Notes under the pieces: generated by a model
The model's input: the letters and a program-made list of their open reading frames with translations, nothing else
The model's database searches: none
What the model was told of the DNA's origin: nothing
Position numbers and translations under genes: made by a program
Assembly (NCBI RefSeq): GCF_053078305.1
Contig: NZ_CP166879.1
Length of the DNA stretch: 64,000 nt
Reading direction: 5' to 3' (one strand)
Shown here: one piece after another, positions 3,294 to 51,739 of the stretch
How positions within the stretch are numbered: position 1 is the stretch's first letter
How the letters are laid out: each line of letters opens with the position of its first letter

Positions 3294-5012
3294 TTATAAT
3301 GGAAAATACTCAAACCCCGAAGCTCCTGACGACACATACTCACCCACGCTGACTGTACGCCACTGAGAACCATCAAATGTCACCTGAAGCGGCCTGTAAG
3401 AAACCGATATCACACCATCTGCTCCTCTACTTTTCAGACCAGTAATCACAGCTCCTATACTCAGGCTTATTGACAGAAAACCAGAGCTCTCTTCTGCTCT
3501 GTAAGTCTGTTCATTACCCAGCCTGATACCCACAACCCGGCTCTTCCCGTCTGATGCCCCGGGCGGCCCCATCGGCCCGGTTTCTCCACGCTCACCTCTG
3601 GGACCGGGGTCGCCTTTCTCCCCTTTCGGTCCCTGCGCTCCCCGCGGACCAGCGGGGCCTGTTGCTCCCGTTTCACCTTTCGGACCCTGTGCTCCGGGGT
3701 CACCTTTCTCTCCTTTCGGACCGGGAACACCACCTCCTGCTGCAGCCTCTTCTGCCTTTGTTTTCGCTTCATTTGCCACATCCATTGCCGCCTTCACGGC
3801 CTTCGGCGTGGCTGCCTTTGTTTCGTCATTACTGCCAGTATCACTGCTTAACTGCACCACACCTTTCTGCGTCGTGCTGGCATCCCGCTGGCTGACCGTA
3901 TCCGGTTTGTTTTTTGTGCTGTAATCCACCCGCCAGTGGAAATACCGTGTGTCGCCGTAAACCGTACAGGTACAGACCGTGCCATTAATAAACCCCGTTG
4001 CACCGTATTCGCCAATGGTGACCCGGACTATGGCAGCCTCATACGTTCCCATCACCTCAATGACACAGCCACCCAGATTGAGTTTTCCCGGTCCGACATC
4101 CGTGATGACTTTATTCATTGACGCAAGCAGTGATGCCTTCATCATCCAGTAAGGCTGGTCAAATGCCCCTTTTTCTTTCAGCCAGGCAACAAACTCGCGT
4201 GTTTTCCATTCACCGGCCCCCGTATGAATGTCCCGCCCGTATACTCTGGCTGCTCCCACGGTGTTCAGAAACTTCACCTTATCCGGGATATCATCACCGT
4301 TTTTCGCTTTCTCCAGGCATCCGTCCGCTTTGTCCATTGCCGCTTTCACCGCTTTCGGCGTGGCTGCCTTCGTTTCATCATCACTGTCCGTTGCGCTGCT
4401 TAACTGCACAATTCCCTTCTGTGCCGTCGTCGCATCCGGCCCTCCCGGCTCGCCTTTTTCGCCCTTCTCTCCCCGTTCACCTTTCACACCCTGAAGCCCC
4501 TGTGGTCCTGTCTCACCACGCTCACCCTTTGGCCCCCGCTCGCCGGTATCGCCTTTTGGCCCGGGAATACCCTGCGGCCCGGTGTCCCCCTTATCCCCCT
4601 TCGGTCCCCGCGCATTCTCTGCCCGTTTCTTCGCTTCCTCTGCACTCGCCGCTGACGCTTCCGCACGTTTCAGGATTTCCGCTGCCACCGCTTCCAGCTC
4701 TGCAAGGGCTTTCGGGTAATACTGTGCGTCTTCCAGGTCCATCAGAAATTTATTCAGCGTTCCCGGTGCAGAATCCGCCTTCACCAGAATGTCACCCACA
4801 TATGACGGCGCGTACCCTTCCGTGTTCAGCGTCACCCGGTACAACCCCGGCTCAACATCCATACTGTAACTGCCGGTTTCCCCCGGCTGACCATACGCCA
4901 CCGTGGTGACAATCACCATCTCCGTTGTGCGGCGCGCTTTCAGCTCTATCGTGCATCCCGGTACTGGTTTTCCCGTACCATCCTTCAGCACACCCGATAT
5001 TCTGACTGTCAT
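3294..5012 (-). CDS. stf: Side tail fiber protein with collagen-like G-x-x repeats
   Basis: Two blocks of [13 protein letters not shown]... repeats; conserved [10 protein letters not shown] motif twice; follows J. Confidence 0.75.
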
Positions 5013-5154
5013 GGATTTCCCCCATAAAAAAACCGCAGTACCGGTTTCCCGGCCTGCGGTAAAATTTGTGGTTTGTTGGTGTTAAAACGGTGCCATCCGG
5101 CTGACCACCCTCAGCAACCGGTCGGCGGGGGATATTCTCCCCCGCCACGGTTTC

Positions 5155-5295
5155 TTACTGCTTACACTGTAAGAACGCCGCAATCTCCGCGCCCGCTATC
5201 CGGAACCGGAACTCGCACAGTGAACTGTGGGTGATCCAGATAATGAGCACTACCGTGATACAAATCACGGTGGTTTTTAACGGTTTTTGCGACAT
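5155..5295 (-). CDS. hok: Hok/Gef-family type I toxin (46 aa), not in ORF track
   Basis: Own translation: MSQKPLKTTVICITVVLIIWITHSSLCEFRFRIAGAEIAAFLQCKQ; TM helix plus LCE-R-R...AAF signature; AAGGAG RBS 9 nt upstream. Confidence 0.6.
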   Translation of the reverse strand: MSQKPLKTTVICITVVLIIWITHSSLCEFRFRIAGAEIAAFLQCKQ

Positions 5296-5493
5296 AAACG
5301 CTTGCTCCTTTTACGGAGAGGCGCTAACCTTCAATTTGCTGAAGATCGAAAGTCAGGCCTCGGGTTAAACATGAATGTTTGTCCGGGGCCTTCGTCTTTC
5401 CGGCCTTCAGGTGTTCCCTCCGGCCATCAGCCAAAGGCACCCGCGCATACTGTACGGTTTTTGTCTCCTTCCGGCAATCCCGGGGCGCGATGT

Positions 5494-8400
5494 TCAACTG
5501 ATGCCGATCCCCGCCGTGGATTTTTTCATGACCACAACCAGTAAATCACTGATGTATGTTGTCGGCGTCCAGTGGTTCACCCCGTTCGACCACACATTAA
5601 ACGTCAGGGTCACATGACCCCGTCCTGCTGGCATATCAATGACGGACGAAAACACCCGGGTGACATCCGTTGCCGGCTGATGAAAAATTACCCTTCCGTT
5701 CATCTGCACCTGTAACTGACACGTGGAATACCATGTTGAAGTGTGATCTTTGCTGGACTGGTGCTCATGTCTCGCCCCCCGGAACAGCACCGGTGGAATG
5801 ATAATCTGCCGGTCGAAGCCCTGGTCATCGTAAACCGTGACGGTTATCGTGCCACTGGCATAACTGTTATTCCGGGGAAAGGCTTTCCCCACCGTCTTCA
5901 CCAGATCGCCTTCAATCTGGTTCGCAGACAGTTTCCCTCTGATGACACAGTTCTCGTTAATGGTGACATTATTGAGCGTGCCGCTATTCGCTGTGACAGC
6001 TCCACTGATGTCCGCATTGCGGGCCGTCAGCCTGCCCTCCGGCGTCAGGGAGAACGTCGGGGGATTGCCGGACGAGGTGATGCTCACTGCAAACAGTCGC
6101 TTCAGGAACACATCGTTCATGAACAGCTGATTCCCCTGCGCCACAAACAGCGGCGTGGTGTTGCCGTTCTCCGGGTTAATCATCGCGATACGGTCCGCCT
6201 GCAGCAGAATATTGCTCAGGGGCTGGCCATCAGCATCCTCAATCCCCGCACCTATACCGGCAACATACGGAATGCCGTTTTTCGTTTTCTGCACCTTCAG
6301 CATATACAGCGCAGCCAGGTCGTTATTTGTGTCTGTCTGCACCCGCTGTATCTGCTGTATGGTGGCACTCTGGTCTTCCAGGGTTTTACTGACCGTCTGC
6401 GTGATTTCATTGCGGGTTTCGGTGATGGTGGTCTTCATCTCCGCCATCTCATCGTCAAGCTGGCTGTTATCAATCAGCTCCCACATCCCCTGTGCCAGAT
6501 GTGTCTTCCCGATTTCTCCTCTGAAAAAGTCCAGATACCCTTCCGCATCATTGCTCGCCCGGCCACTGGCTTCCACAAACGCAGATTTCCCCACCAGGTT
6601 GACGCTGCGCACATAAAACCAGAAATCCTTCCCCGGCTTGATGTGCGGGCCGGAGACGCTCCACTGGCTGCCTGTCCCCAGATAACGGGCAGAGGTTTCC
6701 ACCTGAGATGTGTCTGCGATTTTTGCCTCCGAGAACCAGAACTCAAACTGTACCGTCGGGTCATACACCGCCAGCACCGGTACTGCTGTTATCTGATAAT
6801 ACCCCGGCGTCAGCTCAATGCTGGCCGGTGCTGCAGGCGCATTAATCCGGAACGCGGTGGTGGCAGGTTCGCCCTGCTGGCCGTAGCTGTTTATCGCCCT
6901 GACCGTCAGGGTGTATTCCCCCAGAGGCAGGCCACTGAAACGGTGCTCCGTGTCGGCAGTGATGGCGGTGGTCACCAGGCGGCTGTTTTCACCGTTTCCG
7001 CTGGTCAGGCGCAGACTGAAGCGCACGCCCTTCACCACCCGCGGCGTGTCCCATTTCGCCAGCGCCAGATACTGGCCGTCTGAGGCACTCACCTCCACCG
7101 TGAGGTGCTGCACTGCCGGCGGGATAACGCTGTTCAGTGAACCGGACAGCGGCTCAAAGCGAGCCCCGTTATCCACAATGGCTTCTTTTTCCGGTACGTG
7201 CTGCACTGCCGTGATGGCAAAAGTGCCGTCCGTGTTTTCCCGGATGGAAACACAGCGGAACAGGCGACGACGCAGTGACGGCAGGGAGAGTCCCCACACA
7301 CCGTATGTCTCCACGCCATCCGGCAGGGCGCTGACCTGTATCCGGTCCGGCGCGGGGTGTGCAGTGATGTCCACGCGCACCGGCTTACCGCTGCCGTTAA
7401 TCAGGTTCACCGTCGATGTCCCTGCTTCCGGCAGTGTCACCTCACGGTCCAGCGTCAGTGTGCGGCTGGCGGCATCAATGGACAGGATGCGTCCGCCGGT
7501 CAGGGTCCCGGCATAGTCGTTATCACAGATTTCAATGATGTCACCGGGCGTATGCCGCAGCCCCTGTGACCCGAGCGTGAAATCCACCGTCTGCGTTTCC
7601 AGCAGTTCGGTCTTTATCACCCACAGTCCGGCACGGTGGGCCTGACCGCGGCTGGTACAGCCAAACGCATCCATCTTCAGCAGGTTGCGTCCGTAGCGCA
7701 GGATGGCGTCCGGGTCTTCCACCAGTTCCGTGGAGGTCTGCCAGCCGTTCTGCGGGTCGGTGTAATTCACCTCCACCGCCGTGTGCCGGTCCTTCAGGGC
7801 ACTGAAGCTGTAGCGGAACCCCACGCCGTTATCATCCACCACCACATCGCTGTTGGTGTACGGCCACACCACATCCGACGGACGGTCCTGAACGAACGTC
7901 AGCGTCTGGCCGTTCCATACCGGCATACAGCGCATCGCCGAGCAGAAATCCCCCAGGACATCCCACACCTTACGCTGCTGTGACAGGTACGCATTGAAAG
8001 TCATCCGCGGCTCTGTTCCCCCGAAACCATCCGGGACCGTCTGGTCGCAGTACTGCCCGATGGCATACAGTGCCCACTTGTCCACATCCGCGGCCCCCAG
8101 GCGTTTTCCCATGCCGTAGCGCGGGTGGGTCAGCATGTCCCACAGGCACCAGGCCGGGTTATTGCTGTATGCCGGTTTCAGACTCCCGTCCCAGATACCG
8201 CTGTAGGTGCGTTTTTCCGGGTCATAGTTTGACGGCACCTGAATGATGCGACCACGGATATGGTAGTTCACCGTCAGCTGCTGGCCACCAAACTGCTCCG
8301 CATCCACCTGCAGCCCCACAATGGCCGTGTTCGGGTAGCACTGTTTCACATCGATGATTTCGGTGTATGACGACCACAGCGTTCTGTTCTGCAGCTGGTC

Positions 8401-33810: not shown

Positions 33811-33887
33811 TGGCGCGTTGTACTGGATTCGAACCAGTGACCGATTGCTTAGAAGGCAATTGCTCTGTCCGACTGAGCTAACAACGC
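33811..33887 (-). tRNA. argO: tRNA-Arg (anticodon UCU), argO-like
   Basis: Cloverleaf folded by hand: acceptor GCGTTGT/ACAACGC, anticodon loop CTTCTAA, T-loop GGTTCGAATCC, CCA end. Confidence 0.75.
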
Positions 33888-33900
33888 ATGATGCTGATAA

Positions 33901-33977
33901 TGGACCGCCATCGGGGACTTGAACCCCGCGCAGCCAGCTTCGAAGGCTGGCGCTCTGTCCCGATGAGCTAATGGCGG
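33901..33977 (-). tRNA. argN: tRNA-Arg (anticodon UCG as read), argN-like
   Basis: Acceptor CCGCCAT/ATGGCGG, anticodon loop CTTCGAA, T-arm CGGGGTTCAAGTCCCCG. Confidence 0.65.
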
Positions 33978-33986
33978 TATGTGATA

Positions 33987-34062
33987 TGGTGGCCCTTGCT
34001 GGATTTGAACCAGCGACCTGGCGATTATGAGTCGCTCGCTCTCACCACTGAGCTAAAGGGCC
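33987..34062 (-). tRNA. ileZ: tRNA with CAU anticodon, ileX-like (tRNA-Ile2 via lysidine, or Met)
   Basis: GGCCCTTTAGCTCAGTGGTGAGAGC...CTCATAA...GGTTCAAATCC...CCA; close to E. coli ileX. Confidence 0.75.
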
Positions 34063-43796: not shown

Positions 43797-44234
43797 TCAA
43801 TGCACCACAACAGACTCGCCGGATGACCCGCCGTCGCTGAAATACGCTTTCCGGTAAACGGCCTGGACAGCATCATCATGTGCATCAATTGCCGTGCTCA
43901 ACGCTTCCTGCGCCGCCAGTAATGCACGGCGCTCAACAGTGTCAAAAATACTGAGGTGATAACGCAGTTCACGCGGAAGAACAGTCAGGATAGCCGGAAT
44001 TAGTGCCTGAATTTTTTCAACAGCATCAGGCGTATCCTTTTCAAGCCAGCGAAAAATATTTTGTATATTCAATCCAATACCCTCTGTCGTAGAGGTGTCA
44101 TGCATTGGTGGATAAGTCATTTCAAGCTCAAAATATGCTGTCGCTATATCATCAGCGATTTTTTTGCGCCCTACCCTCGGATAAAGCAGCCACGCATTCA
44201 TCGCCATGCGGATGTGCTCATGCTTGATTTTCAT
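43797..44234 (-). CDS. YdaT-like (CII-like regulator / toxin YdaT family)
   Basis: MKIKHEHI...ALIPAILTVLPRELRYHLSIFDTVERRALLAAQEALSTAIDAHDDAVQAVYRKAYF... resembles Rac YdaT. Confidence 0.6.
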   Translation of the reverse strand: MKIKHEHIRMAMNAWLLYPRVGRKKIADDIATAYFELEMTYPPMHDTSTTEGIGLNIQNIFRWLEKDTPDAVEKIQALIPAILTVLPRELRYHLSIFDTVERRALLAAQEALSTAIDAHDDAVQAVYRKAYFSDGGSSGESVVVH

Positions 44235-44491
44235 GAATCAACTCCCGCCGCTGCTTGTGCGTTAGCCTGATACTCAACAGGTAAACCATCGGTTGGATTA
44301 GGGTATTTATCAGGGCGCAATTCATGCGGAGTTACTCCCCAGTCAAGCGCCTCACATGCTGGTATAACCTCCTCCGCTGGCACTCGTTTTTTAAACCACC
44401 CACTTATGGTTTGCGGTGTTTTACCAAGACGACGCCCTAATTCTGATTGGCTCATTATTGACAGGATTTTCACTTGAGTACTTTTTTGCAT
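44231..44491 (-). CDS. Cro-like HTH protein (YdaS/DicC-type)
   Basis: ...SQSELGRRLGKTPQTISGWFKK... HTH; divergent from repressor gene. Confidence 0.6.
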   Translation of the reverse strand: MQKSTQVKILSIMSQSELGRRLGKTPQTISGWFKKRVPAEEVIPACEALDWGVTPHELRPDKYPNPTDGLPVEYQANAQAAAGVDS

Positions 44492-44611
44492 GTTTCCCTC
44501 CGAACTTTACGATGACACCGATGATTACAAATTTAAATTTAAATTTCAACTTCTATTTGTAATGCCACTTATCAATTTTTTCTGTAGGATCGCGGAACTA
44601 GTTTACGAGGG
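44492..44611. promoter_or_regulatory. Immunity-region intergenic spacer with candidate operators / divergent promoters
   Basis: Inverted repeat ttacaaat ... atttgtaa flanking aatttaaatttaaattt, between divergent repressor and cro-like genes. Confidence 0.4.
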
Positions 44612-45010
44612 GTGGTGATGATCTTTGTAAAACGCCTTCAGCAGGTGTTGCAGGAATTGAATATAAACCAGTCAGAGCTGGGAAGACGTCTTGGTGTAAA
44701 ACCCCAATCCGTGCAAGGTTGGTTGAAAGGCGTGATGCCAAGAATGGATAAACTGGAAAAATTAGCAGAGCTCTCACAACATCCCGTCCATTGGTTCTTT
44801 ATGGAAGAAGAAACTCTCGGCGATAAAATGGCTGTATCCAGTAATGACAACCAACCGCAACTTACAGAACAACAACGAAAAATCATATCGCTTTTAGATG
44901 AGTTACCTCAAAGCGACGCAGAGCAGATCATTCGTGATATGGAGCAAAAACGCGATTTCTATAAACGGAAACTTGAAGAGTTACTGCGGCAGAAAAACAA
45001 AACTGCCTGA
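44612..45010 (+). CDS. Immunity repressor, DicA/RacR-like (HTH only, no peptidase domain)
   Basis: ...LNINQSELGRRLGVKPQSVQGWLKG... HTH; C-terminal ...LTEQQRKIISLLDELPQSDAEQII... resembles DicA. Confidence 0.65.
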   Translation: MVMIFVKRLQQVLQELNINQSELGRRLGVKPQSVQGWLKGVMPRMDKLEKLAELSQHPVHWFFMEEETLGDKMAVSSNDNQPQLTEQQRKIISLLDELPQSDAEQIIRDMEQKRDFYKRKLEELLRQKNKTA

Positions 45011-45056
45011 TGCATTCCTTTTCTGGAACGAGCATCAGGCAAATGACTAGCAGATT

Positions 45057-45416
45057 TTATAATCCAACCAGGCTTTCCAGGGGGATACCAAATTGATTAT
45101 GAAGACGGCGAATCATTGGTAACGTAAGGCTTCTGGTACCATTCAACACCTCATAAACCCGATTTTTTTTCCCAATTGCGGGTTCCAAATCTTTCACAGT
45201 CAGCCCCTGCTGTTCCATGCGAAATCTTATAGCTTCAATTGGGGATGGTGGCTCAATGGGATAATGTTTTTTTTCATATTCCTCTATTAGCAAACACATC
45301 ACCTCAAAAAAATCCCCCTCAGGCGTGTCAATTTCGGGCTCATTGTCGAACATGGGTTCAACAGCACGCAACGCGGCTTCATAATCTTGCTCTGTACGAA
45401 TAGGTTTGATGTTCAT
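45057..45416 (-). CDS. higA: HigA-like antitoxin (C-terminal HTH)
   Basis: ...GLTVKDLEPAIGKKNRVYEVLNGTRSLTLPMIRRLHNQFGIPLESL...; downstream of and adjacent to toxin. Confidence 0.65.
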   Translation of the reverse strand: MNIKPIRTEQDYEAALRAVEPMFDNEPEIDTPEGDFFEVMCLLIEEYEKKHYPIEPPSPIEAIRFRMEQQGLTVKDLEPAIGKKNRVYEVLNGTRSLTLPMIRRLHNQFGIPLESLVGL

Positions 45417-45418
45417 GC

Positions 45419-45721
45419 TTACTCCAGTTCGATGGTATCAGCATCAATAGCATCGTATTCCTTGTGGTTTCCGATGAATTTAACAAATACCCATCCTCGC
45501 TGATACGCAATTGCAACAATTAAACGGTAATGATTACCTTTTATGTTGAATACCACGCGCCGGTTTTTCAATATACTGGCCGTTCGGTATTGTGCCTTAA
45601 TGTCTGCTGGGCTTTTCCAGTCAGCTTTTGCCGCCTCATCCACCCATGCCCTTAGCGGTTGTTCTGCATCAGGATTCTCCGCCCAAAAATCCCTGAGTGT
45701 TTTAACTGAGATAATCTTCAT
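45419..45721 (-). CDS. higB: HigB-like toxin (RelE/ParE fold); start trimmed to ATG at 45721
   Basis: MKIISVKTLRDFWAENPDAEQ...NIKGNHYRLIVAIAYQRGWVFVKFIGNHKEYD... Confidence 0.65.
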   Translation of the reverse strand: MKIISVKTLRDFWAENPDAEQPLRAWVDEAAKADWKSPADIKAQYRTASILKNRRVVFNIKGNHYRLIVAIAYQRGWVFVKFIGNHKEYDAIDADTIELE

Positions 45722-45995
45722 AACTGTATAGTAGTCCCATTTTGGGACTGATGCAACAGCTCGCAATTACAAATTTAATAATAAACATGTTGACCAGTTA
45801 AATTTTAATTTGTAAATTGTATCCATAAACCCACCCCGCCCCACAGAACGCAGGGCAATACTTCGAGTTACCCGGCAGTGGTCAGGGGTTAAGTAGCCAG
45901 CCTGAGGCGTATGAACATGACGGCGGGGATTACGTTTAACTATGCAGCAGGTTTTTTGTTCCGCTACCCCGGCGTTAAGGGGAAATGAGGTCAAC

Positions 45996-46148
45996 ATGGA
46001 TACGCTCAATCTTGGCAACAACGAATCTCTGGTATGCGGTGTGTTCCCTAACCAGGACGGCACGTTTACCGCGATGACGTATACCAAAAGTAAAAAGTTT
46101 AAAACCGAAGCTGGCGCGCGTCGCTGGTTAGCCAGAAACACTAACTGA
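45996..46148 (+). CDS. ydfA: YdfA/YdaF-like small protein (DUF1391)
   Basis: MDTLNLGNNESLVCGVFPNQDGTFTAMTYTKSKKFKTEAGARRWL...; GAGG RBS. Confidence 0.6.
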   Translation: MDTLNLGNNESLVCGVFPNQDGTFTAMTYTKSKKFKTEAGARRWLARNTN

Positions 46149-46412: not shown

Positions 46413-46475
46413 TTTCAATGGCAGTGGTACCTTTGGCGGCATCAGTTTATTAGCTTTCTGATGTCCGCCCTTTTT
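46413..46475 (+). ncRNA. dicF: DicF-like sRNA (ftsZ translation inhibitor homolog)
   Basis: tttggcggcatcagttta...ctgatgtccgccc + T-tract; downstream aaagtgaattttgtgatg..gtgaatgcggct.agcgcacgcggaac recalled as matching the Qin dicF region. Confidence 0.5.
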
Positions 46476-46933
46476 AAAGTGAATTTTGTGATGCGGTGAA
46501 TGCGGCTAAGCGCACGCGGAACAGTTAAAACCGTAAAGTGGTCTTTTACGGGGCGTAACGGGCATACTTCTGTATTCCGGCGTTAATTGTTAACTGGTTA
46601 ACGTCACCTGGAGGCACCAGGCACTGCATCGACAAAGTTCACTTCGGTGATGAAAGGTAAGAGAAAATGTTGAATGTAGCTATTGAAAACCAGAACGGGT
46701 GGAATTATAGTGCACCTGCACCTCATAAAGCGGGTGCCGGGATTGCTACCCCGATGTTCATCATGGCGCATAACCGCGCTCAGGCGTTTTTTTTATGCGT
46801 AATGCACAGCCACATTCAGATTATGGTGGGGCGTGCAGGGCAGCCGCAAGGCTGGCCGGGTTCCATGATGACCGGTTGTAGCAACCCTGTGCGTCTCACC
46901 ACCCATGAGATTGCTACCTCCGGTGGTGAGTTA

Positions 46934-47518
46934 ATGAAATTCATCATGGAGGCTGCCATCATGGCTACTATCCCTGCCCTTTCTCACCCTGAAATTACTA
47001 TCGCCAATGGGCGTGCTGTTACATCCTCTTTAGCTGTTGCCGAGTATTTCCGGAAACCACACAAAGATGTACTGGCAAAAATTTCACGTCTAGACTGTTC
47101 AGCAGAATTCACTGAGCGAAATTTTTCGCCCAGTGAATATACCGACTCAACCGGGCGCAAACTCCCTATGTACCAAATCACCAAAAACGGCTTCGTTTTC
47201 CTGGTGATGGGCTTCACCGGCAAAAAAGCCGCTGCATTTAAAGAAGCCTACATCGCTGAGTTCGATCGCATGGAGAAAGAACTGCGCCAGAATAACGCCC
47301 CGTCTCCCGACAAAATGATTCACGGGGACGGACGTACCCTGGTTATCCGTCTCGACGAACACGGCAATATCAAATTCACTGAAACCGTTCCTGATGGTGC
47401 AATGGTCTGCACCCTGGATACCTTCCAGTTTTATCTGGAGAAACAAGGCTGGACTCTTGTAAACCGGAGCGCAATTAAAAATATGACTGTGGAGCAATTA
47501 CTAAAAATTCATTGTTGA
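46934..47518 (+). CDS. rha: Rha-family phage regulatory protein (start uncertain: 46934 or 46961)
   Basis: ...ITIANGRAVTSSLAVAEYFRKPHKDVLAKISRL...PMYQITKNGFVFLVMGFTGKKAAAFKEAYI... Rha domain. Confidence 0.65.
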   Translation: MKFIMEAAIMATIPALSHPEITIANGRAVTSSLAVAEYFRKPHKDVLAKISRLDCSAEFTERNFSPSEYTDSTGRKLPMYQITKNGFVFLVMGFTGKKAAAFKEAYIAEFDRMEKELRQNNAPSPDKMIHGDGRTLVIRLDEHGNIKFTETVPDGAMVCTLDTFQFYLEKQGWTLVNRSAIKNMTVEQLLKIHC

Positions 47519-47528
47519 GGACGCGATA

Positions 47529-47717
47529 ATGGAAACGTTATTACCAAACGTTAATACGTCTGAAGGGTGTTTTGATATTGGTATTCTGCTCAGTAACCGG
47601 GAGTTTACTGAAGATGCCATTAAGATGAGAAAATATGAGCCTTATCTTCTCAATGATAATTCCATACTCTCCAGAATTGCCCTTCTTAAACTTGGTATTT
47701 TCGGAGGGCAGCAGTGA
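47529..47717 (+). CDS. dicB: DicB-like cell-division inhibitor
   Basis: METLLPNVNTSEGCFDIGILLSNREFTEDAIKMRK... matches DicB N-terminus. Confidence 0.7.
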   Translation: METLLPNVNTSEGCFDIGILLSNREFTEDAIKMRKYEPYLLNDNSILSRIALLKLGIFGGQQ

Positions 47718-50499: not shown

Positions 50500-50751
50500 A
50501 TGTACGAATTAACTCTATCGCCAGCAGAAATTCAAGAGATCACGAGATACGAACGGTATACAAAACAGCAACAACAGTTAAGGTTGCACGGTATCCCATT
50601 TGTACCCGGTCCTAAAAACGAACCAATAGTTCTTCGCAGTGATGTCCCGCGCGGACTGACTGCGATACCGAAAGTATCTGAACTGGTTTCTGCTGACCCC
50701 GATTTTGAGGCGCTGAACAATGGGAAGACCAAGAAAAAACAAAAAAGATAA
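50500..50751 (+). CDS. xis: Putative excisionase
   Basis: Small basic protein immediately upstream of and overlapping int. Confidence 0.5.
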   Translation: MYELTLSPAEIQEITRYERYTKQQQQLRLHGIPFVPGPKNEPIVLRSDVPRGLTAIPKVSELVSADPDFEALNNGKTKKKQKR

Positions 50752-51739
50752 TGCACTACCGCCACGTGTTAGATCGAATGGTTACAGTTACGTATGGAAA
50801 CCCGAAGGAAGCACAAAAACTATAGGGCTAGGAAGAGTGCGGGAAACCAGCATAGCTAAAGTCTGGCAGAATTATGAACTGGAAAAAGCAAAACGCCACA
50901 ACATAATGACCGTCGCTAAATTATGGCACATGTTTATGGATTCCCCCGCATTTACAGAACTGGCCCCCAGAACCCAAAAAGATTATCGGCAACATCAGAG
51001 GGCGTTACTGGCAGTCTTCGGAAAAGTACTGGCTGATAATGTAAAAATTGAGCAGGTAAGAATTTTCATGGATAAACGGGGGATTGAGAGCAAGACCCAG
51101 GCAAACCATGAACTGGCAAGTCTCAGTCGTGTATACGGGTGGGGATATGAGCGTGGATATGTGAAGAATAACCCATGCAAAGGAGTCAGGAAATTTACGC
51201 TTAAAGCCCGCACTGTTTACATCACAGATGAACAGTATGCGGCGATATATGCGGAAGCAATACCACAGTTACGCATTGCAATGGAGATATCCTATCTTTG
51301 TGCGGCAAGACTCGGTGATGTGCTCGAGCTGAAATGGCAGGATATTATGGATAAAGGAATCTACATTGAGCAAAACAAGACCGGCACCAAACAAATCAAG
51401 GAATGGTCTCCACGATTACGAACCGCGATCCAGTTAGCCAGAAATGTATCTTCAGGCACATGTGAATATGTGATCAACACAACCAAGGGCGGGAAGGTCA
51501 TAGCTAAAACGCTAAACAACTGGTGGAACCAGGCTAAACACGCAGCCGAGAAAAAATCCGGCGTCCCGTTTGGGTGCAATTTCCATGACATAAAAGCCAA
51601 AGGAATATCAGATTACGAAGGAAGCAGTCGCGACAAACAGATTTTCAGTGGACATAAAACAGAAAATCAGGTGTTGATTTATGATCGTAAAACAAAAATC
51701 ACGCCGACACTGGATTTGCCACTTGTGGTCAGCAAGTAG
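50720..51739 (+). CDS. int: Tyrosine integrase
   Basis: 339 aa; catalytic R (AARLGDV), H-x-x-K and terminal HKTENQVLIYDRK (Tyr) motifs; adjacent to attR. Confidence 0.85.
   Translation: MGRPRKNKKDNALPPRVRSNGYSYVWKPEGSTKTIGLGRVRETSIAKVWQNYELEKAKRHNIMTVAKLWHMFMDSPAFTELAPRTQKDYRQHQRALLAVFGKVLADNVKIEQVRIFMDKRGIESKTQANHELASLSRVYGWGYERGYVKNNPCKGVRKFTLKARTVYITDEQYAAIYAEAIPQLRIAMEISYLCAARLGDVLELKWQDIMDKGIYIEQNKTGTKQIKEWSPRLRTAIQLARNVSSGTCEYVINTTKGGKVIAKTLNNWWNQAKHAAEKKSGVPFGCNFHDIKAKGISDYEGSSRDKQIFSGHKTENQVLIYDRKTKITPTLDLPLVVSK

Follow-up and report, generated by a model that had tools for sequence, protein, structure and literature searches.

The HigBA toxin–antitoxin (TA) system of Escherichia coli K-12 (YgjN/YgjM) is translation-dependent and autoregulated by its antitoxin HigA, with Lon-dependent activation of the promoter (PMC2814082), and its toxin HigB cuts translated mRNA with a codon-position bias (PMC8546651). 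Related toxins occur in systems that act against phages. The HigBAC system of E. coli NT1F31 defends against lambda-vir and Bas25, its chaperone sensing the tail protein gpV, and its HigB causes a fast and specific shut-off of translation (Mets et al., bioRxiv 10.1101/2024.02.24.581848); in PD-lambda-2, component B is the toxic part and component C is needed for defense (Vassallo et al. 2022). A TA system of a different kind, paaR2-paaA2-parE2 of prophage CP-933P (E. coli O157:H7), stabilizes plasmids and has been proposed to protect the immunity region of that prophage against recombinational replacement (Jurenas et al., PMC8630535). The slot between the repressor gene and the left operator (OL) of lambdoid phages is a recognized hotspot of mosaic diversity and of defense and abortive-infection genes (PMC8585504; bioRxiv 10.1101/2024.02.24.581848), a point that Owen et al. 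made likewise for BstA. Here, we analyze a two-gene pair, higB and higA, that occupies this slot at positions 45057–45721 of a 64,000-nucleotide (nt) stretch of DNA (contig NZ_CP166879.1 of RefSeq assembly GCF_053078305.1), hereafter the window.

We consider it likely that the pair is a functional, self-contained HigBA operon of the K-12 YgjN/YgjM type and a long-standing passenger of the immunity module, in which it lies between the repressor gene and the OL/left promoter (PL) region. That the two genes form a bona fide HigBA TA system, wired as described below, is very likely.

Both genes are intact open reading frames (ORFs) on the minus strand. The 100-amino acid (aa) HigB is encoded from an ATG at 45721 to a stop codon at 45421–45419 and the 119-aa HigA from an ATG at 45416 to a stop codon at 45059–45057, with 2 nt (45418–45417) between the genes; the toxin-first order and a spacing of 0–5 nt are kept in all homologous loci examined. 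In a Pfam scan, HigB matched PF09907 (HigB_toxin) and no other family, covering all 74 profile positions (E = 4.8e-33; 113.7 bits against a cut-off of 27 bits), with no match to PF05015 (HigB-like_toxin). An NCBIfam search gave no match for either HigB or HigA, and a sequence search of the PDB matched HigB to the solved K-12/Shigella HigB structures (E ~ 3e-7). An AlphaFold model of HigB, built from 30 homologues (predicted local distance difference test score, pLDDT, 92.3) and compared using Foldseek, superposes on K-12 HigB (5IFG_A) with a template modelling (TM) score of 0.84 and a root-mean-square deviation (rmsd) of 1.3 Å, at a sequence identity of 28%, and resembles RelE, YoeB and Proteus vulgaris HigB more distantly (TM 0.60 and E = 0.06 for the latter). 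Eight residues, F58, N59, G62, N63, R66, H86, Y89 and D90, are invariant across the 30 homologues. A longer, 115-aa version of higB starting from a TTG at 45766 was considered and rejected, given that the homologues all start with MKI(I/V) and that the extension overlies the promoter and operator.

The antitoxin HigA contains an HTH_3 helix-turn-helix (HTH) domain at residues 63–115 (Pfam, E = 4e-6), matches the K-12 HigA structures 5IFG_B and 5YCL_A over residues 6–112 (E ~ 3e-9), with 37% identity to K-12 HigA, and, in the alignment, ends directly after the HTH, without a ChAD or peptidase extension. In RefSeq, HigB (WP_000692026.1) is named “type II toxin-antitoxin system HigB family toxin,” and HigA is labelled as an HTH protein or, in newer records, as “HigA family antitoxin.” With a HigB_toxin domain, a RelE-like fold, a toxin-first operon and an antitoxin with a C-terminal HTH, the window pair has the make-up of a PF09907 HigBA system of the K-12 YgjN/YgjM type. 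In comparisons with divergent copies of this prophage module (94–96% DNA identity), the ratio of nonsynonymous to synonymous substitution rates (dN/dS) is 0.02–0.04 for higA and 0.07–0.08 for higB; the pair is real, intact and under purifying selection. A single contig in IMG/VR (2526164630_000030, near position 2603) carries a higA copy that lacks 1 nt in a homopolymer of 8 bases (T8 on the plus strand, A8 in the coding strand; equivalent to 45267–45274 of the window), which puts the antitoxin out of frame and leaves higB intact; the cause could be a sequencing error or a site prone to slippage.

The regulatory elements of the operon are predictions. The promoter was identified by comparative alignment, its start being predicted, and the terminator by folding, both having been missed by consensus scans. 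The promoter has a perfect 17-bp palindrome in its spacer. This palindrome, AGTCCCA-N3-TGGGACT, occurs once in the window, and, in the form (A/G)GTCCCA-N3-TGGGACT, it was found directly ahead of higB homologues in over 30 unrelated contexts on chromosomes, plasmids, phage-plasmids and phages. Many or most of these relatives have two copies, and the window and a copy in a Salmonella tail operon have one. The higBA operon of K-12 shows an identical 7-3-7 layout of two palindromes, of another sequence (GTTGCCA-N3-TGGCAAC), plus a leader. The palindrome is the predicted operator through which HigA would regulate its own operon.

Only 6 nt separate the end of the -10 box from the ATG of higB, leaving no room for a Shine-Dalgarno (SD) sequence. 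Promoters were compared across 32 contexts, the window and 31 homologous loci, and in 23 of them, the window included, the -10 box ends 5–8 nt (mostly 6) from the ATG; an SD-like motif is absent in 22 of these 23, the lone GAGG match (L105) lying within the 6-nt leader. Another seven contexts have a leader of 21–31 nt with an SD sequence, and the remaining ones are a locus with a 16-nt gap lacking an SD sequence (L111) and one that the palindrome search did not match (L095). The conservation of this geometry across homologues, together with the 6-nt distance between the -10 box and the ATG, leads us to predict a leaderless mRNA for higB. The promoter PRM of lambda cI shares this geometry. Downstream of higA there is no third gene: the convergent repressor gene has its stop codon 46 nt beyond that of higA, and the predicted higBA terminator overlaps this stop codon and the final codons of the repressor gene. 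The terminator hairpin (free energy, dG, -23.5 kcal/mol; z = -2.95 relative to shuffled sequences) contains a 10-bp perfect inverted repeat and was missed by the terminator scan because of its long, interrupted stem; on the plus strand, no U-run was found after the hairpin. Thus, the higBA operon is predicted to be autonomous, with its own promoter-operator, toxin gene, SD-led antitoxin gene and terminator.

The pair belongs to a lambdoid (Qin/Rac-like) prophage of about 50 kb in an E. coli chromosome, which extends from tRNA-Ser(tga) at 1860–1947 to an integrase gene at 50720–51739 beside yccA; strain FHI_NMBU_10 matches a 1.8-kb query at 99.8% identity. On the minus strand, replication genes, a ydaT-like gene (CII analogue) and a ydaS-like gene lead up to the right operator (OR) region, beyond which follow the repressor gene (plus strand), higA and then higB (minus strand), OL/PL, and the early-left genes (plus strand): ydfA-like, small RNAs (sRNAs), Rha, dicB, exonuclease and integrase. 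The operator motif TTACAAATTTAA is confined, within the window, to OR (44525–44536) and OL (45767–45778 and, inverted, 45804–45815), three occurrences against 0.24 expected. At OL, a promoter scan identified a PL-like promoter (TTGACC-17-TAAATT, 45790–45818, plus strand) that reads into the ydfA-like early-left genes, and the predicted higBA promoter stands back-to-back with OL/PL at a distance of about 10 bp. Since OR and OL, the sole sites of the operator motif in the window, bracket the repressor gene and the TA pair, higBA lies inside the immunity module, in the topological slot of rexAB. Its strand is opposite to that of the repressor gene, with which it is convergent, and the arrangement is not one of cotranscription with the repressor. 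A preliminary description of this DNA had proposed a toxin-first pair of a RelE-fold HigB and an HTH HigA, separated by 2 nt and located between the immunity repressor gene and the early-left genes, in a rexAB-like hotspot; the ORFs found at exactly these coordinates, the Pfam and structure matches, the bracketing operators and the published record of the hotspot all agree with it.

Of 5426 complete E. coli genomes, 147 (about 2.7%) were found to contain the TA pair, a sample that is skewed, 135 of the 147 copies being at least 99% identical. The cro-repressor block (44231–45050) was likewise found in 147 E. coli genomes, at a coverage of at least 80%, and the flanking arms vary. In IMG/VR, the pair is present in all 22 contigs with this repressor, and an E. 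coli variant whose repressor is 89% identical retains it. In Salmonella prophages in which the repressor and the Cro analogue are 74% and 72% identical to those in the window, the convergent TA pair is kept (HigA 88%, HigB 80% identical) and the OL sequence is similar. Because the pair is kept in 147 of 147 genomes, 22 of 22 IMG/VR loci and the variants with 89%- and 74%-identical repressors, its association with the immunity module is old and co-diverging, and the pair is fixed in this immunity type. Two of these loci have features of their own. In one Salmonella locus (L135, 3388–3535), the spacer between the repressor and higA stop codons is about 148 nt long, compared with 46 nt in the window, and includes a short tandem repeat of GGTCTTC (four copies); E. 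coli A34 (NZ_CP028741.1, locus positions 4428–5526), which contains a prophage with this immunity module and HigBA, has in the early-left arm of that prophage a “tRNA-OTHER” and a Phd/YefM-RelE/ParE TA pair as well.

The preliminary description had further taken the pair for an acquired moron, with the equivalent dicA-ydfA position of Qin being empty. This gap is indeed empty in K-12 Qin (166 bp), as is the slot in phages Tritos and mEp460. We nevertheless rejected Qin as the ancestral empty site, considering that it is a heteroimmune cassette whose DNA similarity to the window begins only at 45958; in other Qin-like phages, similarity resumes at about 45828, just after OL. A recent moron insertion was rejected as well, since there is no anomaly in G+C content (42–44% in the TA pair, 39–43% in the surrounding immunity region) and E. 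coli yielded no allele of this repressor with an empty site, neither in the 147 genomes nor in the 22 IMG/VR loci or the 89% variant. Acquisition at greater depth is supported by more distant comparisons: the TA pair is missing from a Sodalis relative whose repressor is 71% identical, and prophages of Salmonella Javiana and its relatives, with a 72%-identical repressor, contain in the slot an orphan 63-aa PaaA2-like antitoxin that lacks a ParE partner, together with a protein bearing a TM2 domain, one of 219 aa and an HTH-Peptidase_M78 protein of 366 aa. Thus, the notion of acquisition would hold at this depth, and that of a recent insertion into a Qin-like backbone does not. A DNA search of the phage collection yielded matches on the ydfA side only and revealed no phage sequence that contains this TA pair.

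Related cassettes, with toxins 74–91% identical to HigB, are present at several unrelated sites, among them the ybaB|recR intergenic site of Enterobacteriaceae, a Klebsiella metabolic locus, an E. coli phage-plasmid-like element (65–97 kb in the listed records, mostly about 86–97 kb), and Plesiomonas plasmids, where the cassette adjoins par, H-NS, hok and mob genes. In lambdoid prophages of Salmonella enterica (L021–L023), HigBA (toxin 77% identical) is located on the opposite strand between the tape-measure and minor tail genes, and a second TA pair, consisting of a PF05015 HigB-like or PF06296 RelE toxin with an HTH partner, lies on the other side of the tape-measure gene. More distant homologues on IMG/VR contigs adjoin genes for tape-measure, tail-sheath, DNA-circulation, integrase, ORF6N and cI-type repressor proteins.

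Among defense systems, PD-lambda-2 is the best database match for both window proteins: HigB matches PADLOC PD-Lambda-2_A (PDLC03979) over positions 1–96 of 97 (E = 1.1e-40), and HigA matches PD-Lambda-2_B over only positions 1–119 of 402 (E = 2e-42). A tblastn search of phages detected a PF09907 HigB, 42–43% identical, directly after cI in the Shiga toxin (Stx) phages H-19B, BP-4795 and ST2-8624 and in many Stx1a phages. In BP-4795 (NC_004813.1, 8720–10061), cI is followed by genes for a 95-aa PF09907 HigB, a 218-aa HigA with a tail of about 95 aa, and a 134-aa protein that matches the SecB-like PD-T4-9_C; the match of ORF20 to this model has E = 3e-11. We identify the BP-4795/H-19B locus as HigBAC-type, an assignment that rests on matching architecture and not on the NT1F31 sequences. 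In most Stx1a phage records, the HigBAC-type locus is unannotated.

We tentatively favor abortive infection as the selected role of the window pair, giving it somewhat less than an even chance, because of the slot, the homology to validated defense toxins and the recurrent placement of such cassettes at phage moron sites. Judging by the conservation of the palindrome and the autoregulation of K-12 HigA, HigA dimers would bind the 17-bp palindrome in the promoter spacer and repress transcription. Probably lacking a leader and an SD sequence, the higB mRNA would be poorly translated, and higA has a good SD sequence, so an excess of antitoxin would be expected despite the toxin-first order; by homology to the solved K-12 complex, HigA would sequester HigB. 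When the synthesis of HigA stops and HigA is degraded, free HigB would shut down translation, most likely by ribosome-dependent mRNA cleavage, judging by K-12 HigB and, provided that it is like the 43%-identical ORF22 of BP-4795, by NT1F31 HigB. Expressed in the lysogen, the pair would most likely abort superinfection by phages that shut off host gene expression and would also penalize loss or replacement of the immunity module. More doubtful is the further proposal that the two genes form a stand-alone device of both defense and guardianship, with a leaderless toxin mRNA, a design shared by some two thirds of this HigB subfamily, and no dedicated sensor, inseparable from the repressor and its operators: the toxin would be low in healthy lysogens and would prevail upon shut-off of host transcription by a phage or loss of the immunity module, and the back-to-back arrangement of the higBA promoter and OL/PL could couple toxin expression to the state of the repressor. 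Several points weigh against the favored account. The higBA promoter hexamers are weak (7/12), and the consensus promoter scan did not call them; a literature search on the window HigB and HigA accessions and on “leaderless higB” found nothing specific; phage sensing requires the chaperone HigC and the ChAD tail of HigA in HigBAC and component C in PD-lambda-2, whose component B bears a peptidase domain, parts that, by sequence comparison, are absent from the window pair; according to a 2026 report (PMC12817084), the PF09907-like toxin SehA of Salmonella, 40% identical to K-12 HigB, is not an RNase and acts as an inhibitor of RNase III; and the plasmid, phage-plasmid and housekeeping intergenic contexts of the related cassettes fit addiction or selfish spread as well as defense.

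The weights that we assign to abortive infection, addiction and selfish persistence overlap, as these roles are not exclusive. An addiction module or guardian, arresting or killing cells upon loss of the prophage or upon a swap of their immunity region through recombination with a heteroimmune phage, without acting against infecting phages, is possible although on balance rather unlikely. It has a precedent in paaR2-paaA2-parE2 of CP-933P, in the same prophage family and slot (PMC8630535), and it is consistent with the TA pair never being found apart from the immunity cassette while both flanking arms vary, as well as with the finding that homologues 83–91% identical adjoin par, hok and H-NS genes on plasmids and also occur on phage-plasmid-like replicons. 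The perfect linkage, however, is equally predicted by the position between the repressor gene and OL and is affected by oversampling of near-identical copies; moreover, chromosomal TA systems are often poor stabilizers, and a combined role in addiction and defense is compatible with the data. That the 0.7-kb cassette is a selfish passenger, persisting because it is hard to lose and benefiting neither phage nor host, seems to us unlikely: cassettes with the same promoter-operator do occur at many unrelated sites (ybaB|recR, Klebsiella metabolic genes, plasmids, tail operons, and beside integrase or antirepressor genes), but both genes have stayed intact with low dN/dS despite divergence of the module to 74% (repressor) and 72% (Cro analogue), and their placement recurs at phage moron sites and defense hotspots. 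It is improbable that HigB works by a chemistry other than ribosome-dependent mRNA cleavage, for instance by binding RNase III as SehA does (PMC12817084), a reading to which the low identity to K-12 HigB and the lack of a mapped catalytic site among the invariant residues lend some room; K-12 HigB cleaves translated mRNA with a codon-position bias, NT1F31 HigB, a closer relative if it is like BP-4795 ORF22, shuts off translation, and the modelled fold of the window toxin is very close to that of K-12 HigB. Least probable by far is a decayed or silent remnant that no longer works as a TA system. The frameshifted higA copy in IMG/VR and the retention of one operator palindrome in the window, against two in most relatives, would point that way, but both frames are intact in the loci translated and under strong purifying selection, the lone frameshift, located in a homopolymer, could reflect a sequencing error, and the predicted promoter, operator, SD sequence and terminator are all retained.

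Table 1. Coordinates in the window of the higBA pair, its predicted regulatory elements and the surrounding immunity module.
Feature	Position	Strand	Description
cro analogue (YdaS family)	44231..44491	-	right-hand edge of the immunity module; Pfam YdaS_toxin and HTH_3
OR-type operator region	44524..44563		between the cro-like and repressor genes; ATTACAAATTTAA ... ATTTGTAAT
Immunity repressor	44618..45010	+	DicA-like HTH protein, 130 aa, convergent with higA; RefSeq WP_000578360.1
higBA intrinsic terminator (predicted)	44990..45042	-	hairpin 45042..45003, then GUUUUGUUUUUCUG
higA	45057..45416	-	119-aa antitoxin; N-terminal toxin-binding part and C-terminal HTH (residues 63-115)
higB	45419..45721	-	100-aa RelE-fold toxin; PF09907 HigB_toxin; RefSeq WP_000692026.1
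Shine-Dalgarno GGAG of higA	45422..45425	-	within the final higB codons, 5 nt ahead of the higA ATG; read from the sequence
higBA promoter (predicted)	45728..45756	-	-35 TTGCAT (45756..45751), 17-nt spacer formed by the operator, -10 TACTAT (45733..45728)
HigA operator (predicted)	45733..45749		perfect 7-3-7 palindrome AGTCCCA-TTT-TGGGACT
OL/PL-type region	45766..45818		inverted operator half-sites TTACAAATTTAA and TTTAATTTGTAA flanking a plus-strand promoter
DUF1391/YdfA-like gene	45996..46148	+	first gene of the early-left arm

The repressor matches HTH_3 (Pfam, E = 7e-9) and the NCBIfam DicA model at 50 bits, under the cut-off of 101 bits. The neighboring cro-like and cII-like genes (43797–44491) match the Pfam families “YdaS_toxin” and “YdaT_toxin,” and one of them bears the RefSeq name “toxin YdaT family protein”; these names are misleading, and we rejected the two genes as a second TA pair given that published work on CP-933P shows YdaS and YdaT to be analogues of Cro and CII, respectively (PMC8630535). 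In the early-left arm, Rfam matches above the gathering scores were obtained for isrK (46718–46794, 58 bits) and C4 antisense RNA (46819–46906, 78 bits). Both fall in the 5' third of ORF 46667–47518, which encodes a 283-aa “Rha family” protein, and its N-terminal match to the Pfam family Phage_ASH (residues 14–109) overlies both; the start codon of this ORF may be mis-set, and the isrK/C4 unit looks like the c4-antirepressor control of the P1/P7 type. A DicF-like sRNA match (46422–46470, plus strand; 36.4 bits, under the gathering score of 48 bits) lies upstream of dicB (47529–47717), as in Qin. Elsewhere in the prophage, tRNA-Arg(tct), tRNA-Arg(tcg) and tRNA-Met are clustered at 33811–34062, which is typical of the late regions of Stx-type lambdoid phages.

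The protein family, the slot and both candidate roles have already been published, RefSeq already annotates the toxin, and the present findings leave current concepts unchanged. What this analysis adds is a conserved promoter with the operator in its spacer, a predicted leaderless toxin mRNA, and the bracketing of the TA pair by OR and OL. The promoter architecture, in which 6 nt separate the -10 box from the ATG, amounts to a testable prediction on how toxin output is kept low in toxin-first operons. Many of the E. coli that carry the pair are Shiga-toxin-producing strains of the O26, O103, O111 and O45 groups; if the pair blocks superinfection or stabilizes the prophage, phage therapy and the dynamics with which Stx phages are exchanged in these lineages would be affected. 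The pair would also serve as a natural minimal counterpart to HigBAC and PD-lambda-2, against which the contribution of their extra sensor parts could be examined.

In comparison with the described systems, the window pair is closest in build to K-12 HigBA (PDB 5IFG, 6KML, 5YCL), with which it shares the PF09907 toxin, the toxin-first order, the antitoxin with a C-terminal HTH, the fold (TM 0.84) and 7-3-7 promoter palindromes. The K-12 operon, in contrast, has a chromosomal housekeeping context, a leader and operators of a different sequence, whereas the window pair is part of a prophage immunity module and predicted to be leaderless. The HigBA of Rts1/Proteus vulgaris has the name, the toxin-first order and the RelE superfamily fold in common with it, but belongs to another Pfam family (PF05015) and is a weak structural match. 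PD-lambda-2, although the best match among defense systems, differs in that its B component carries a peptidase domain at its C terminus and that a third gene, C, exists, both of which the window pair lacks. HigBAC, for which the BP-4795 locus serves here as a stand-in, resembles the pair in its PF09907 HigB (ORF22, 43% identical), in the core of HigA (41%) and in its slot just after a lambdoid repressor gene; it differs in the ChAD tail of about 95 aa, the gene for a SecB-like chaperone and its co-orientation with cI. The window pair has a HigA of 119 aa, as opposed to 218 aa in BP-4795, without the ChAD or a chaperone gene, and is convergent with the repressor gene under its own predicted promoter.

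By location, the nearest counterpart is paaR2-paaA2-parE2, likewise a type II TA system that directly follows the repressor gene within the immunity region of a prophage of the ydaS/ydaT type (Qin/Rac-like). That system, however, has a ParE toxin and an antitoxin without a DNA-binding domain, and is cotranscribed with and regulated by the repressor, whereas the window operon has a HigB toxin, is convergent with the repressor gene and appears to be autonomous, with predicted autoregulation. The rexAB genes of lambda and bstA of BTP1 are cargo in the same slot between the repressor gene and OL/N, but their proteins and mechanisms are unrelated to HigBA, and they share the transcript of the repressor. 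What distinguishes the window pair among these systems is the combination of a bare two-gene core, convergence with the repressor gene and a predicted regulation of its own.

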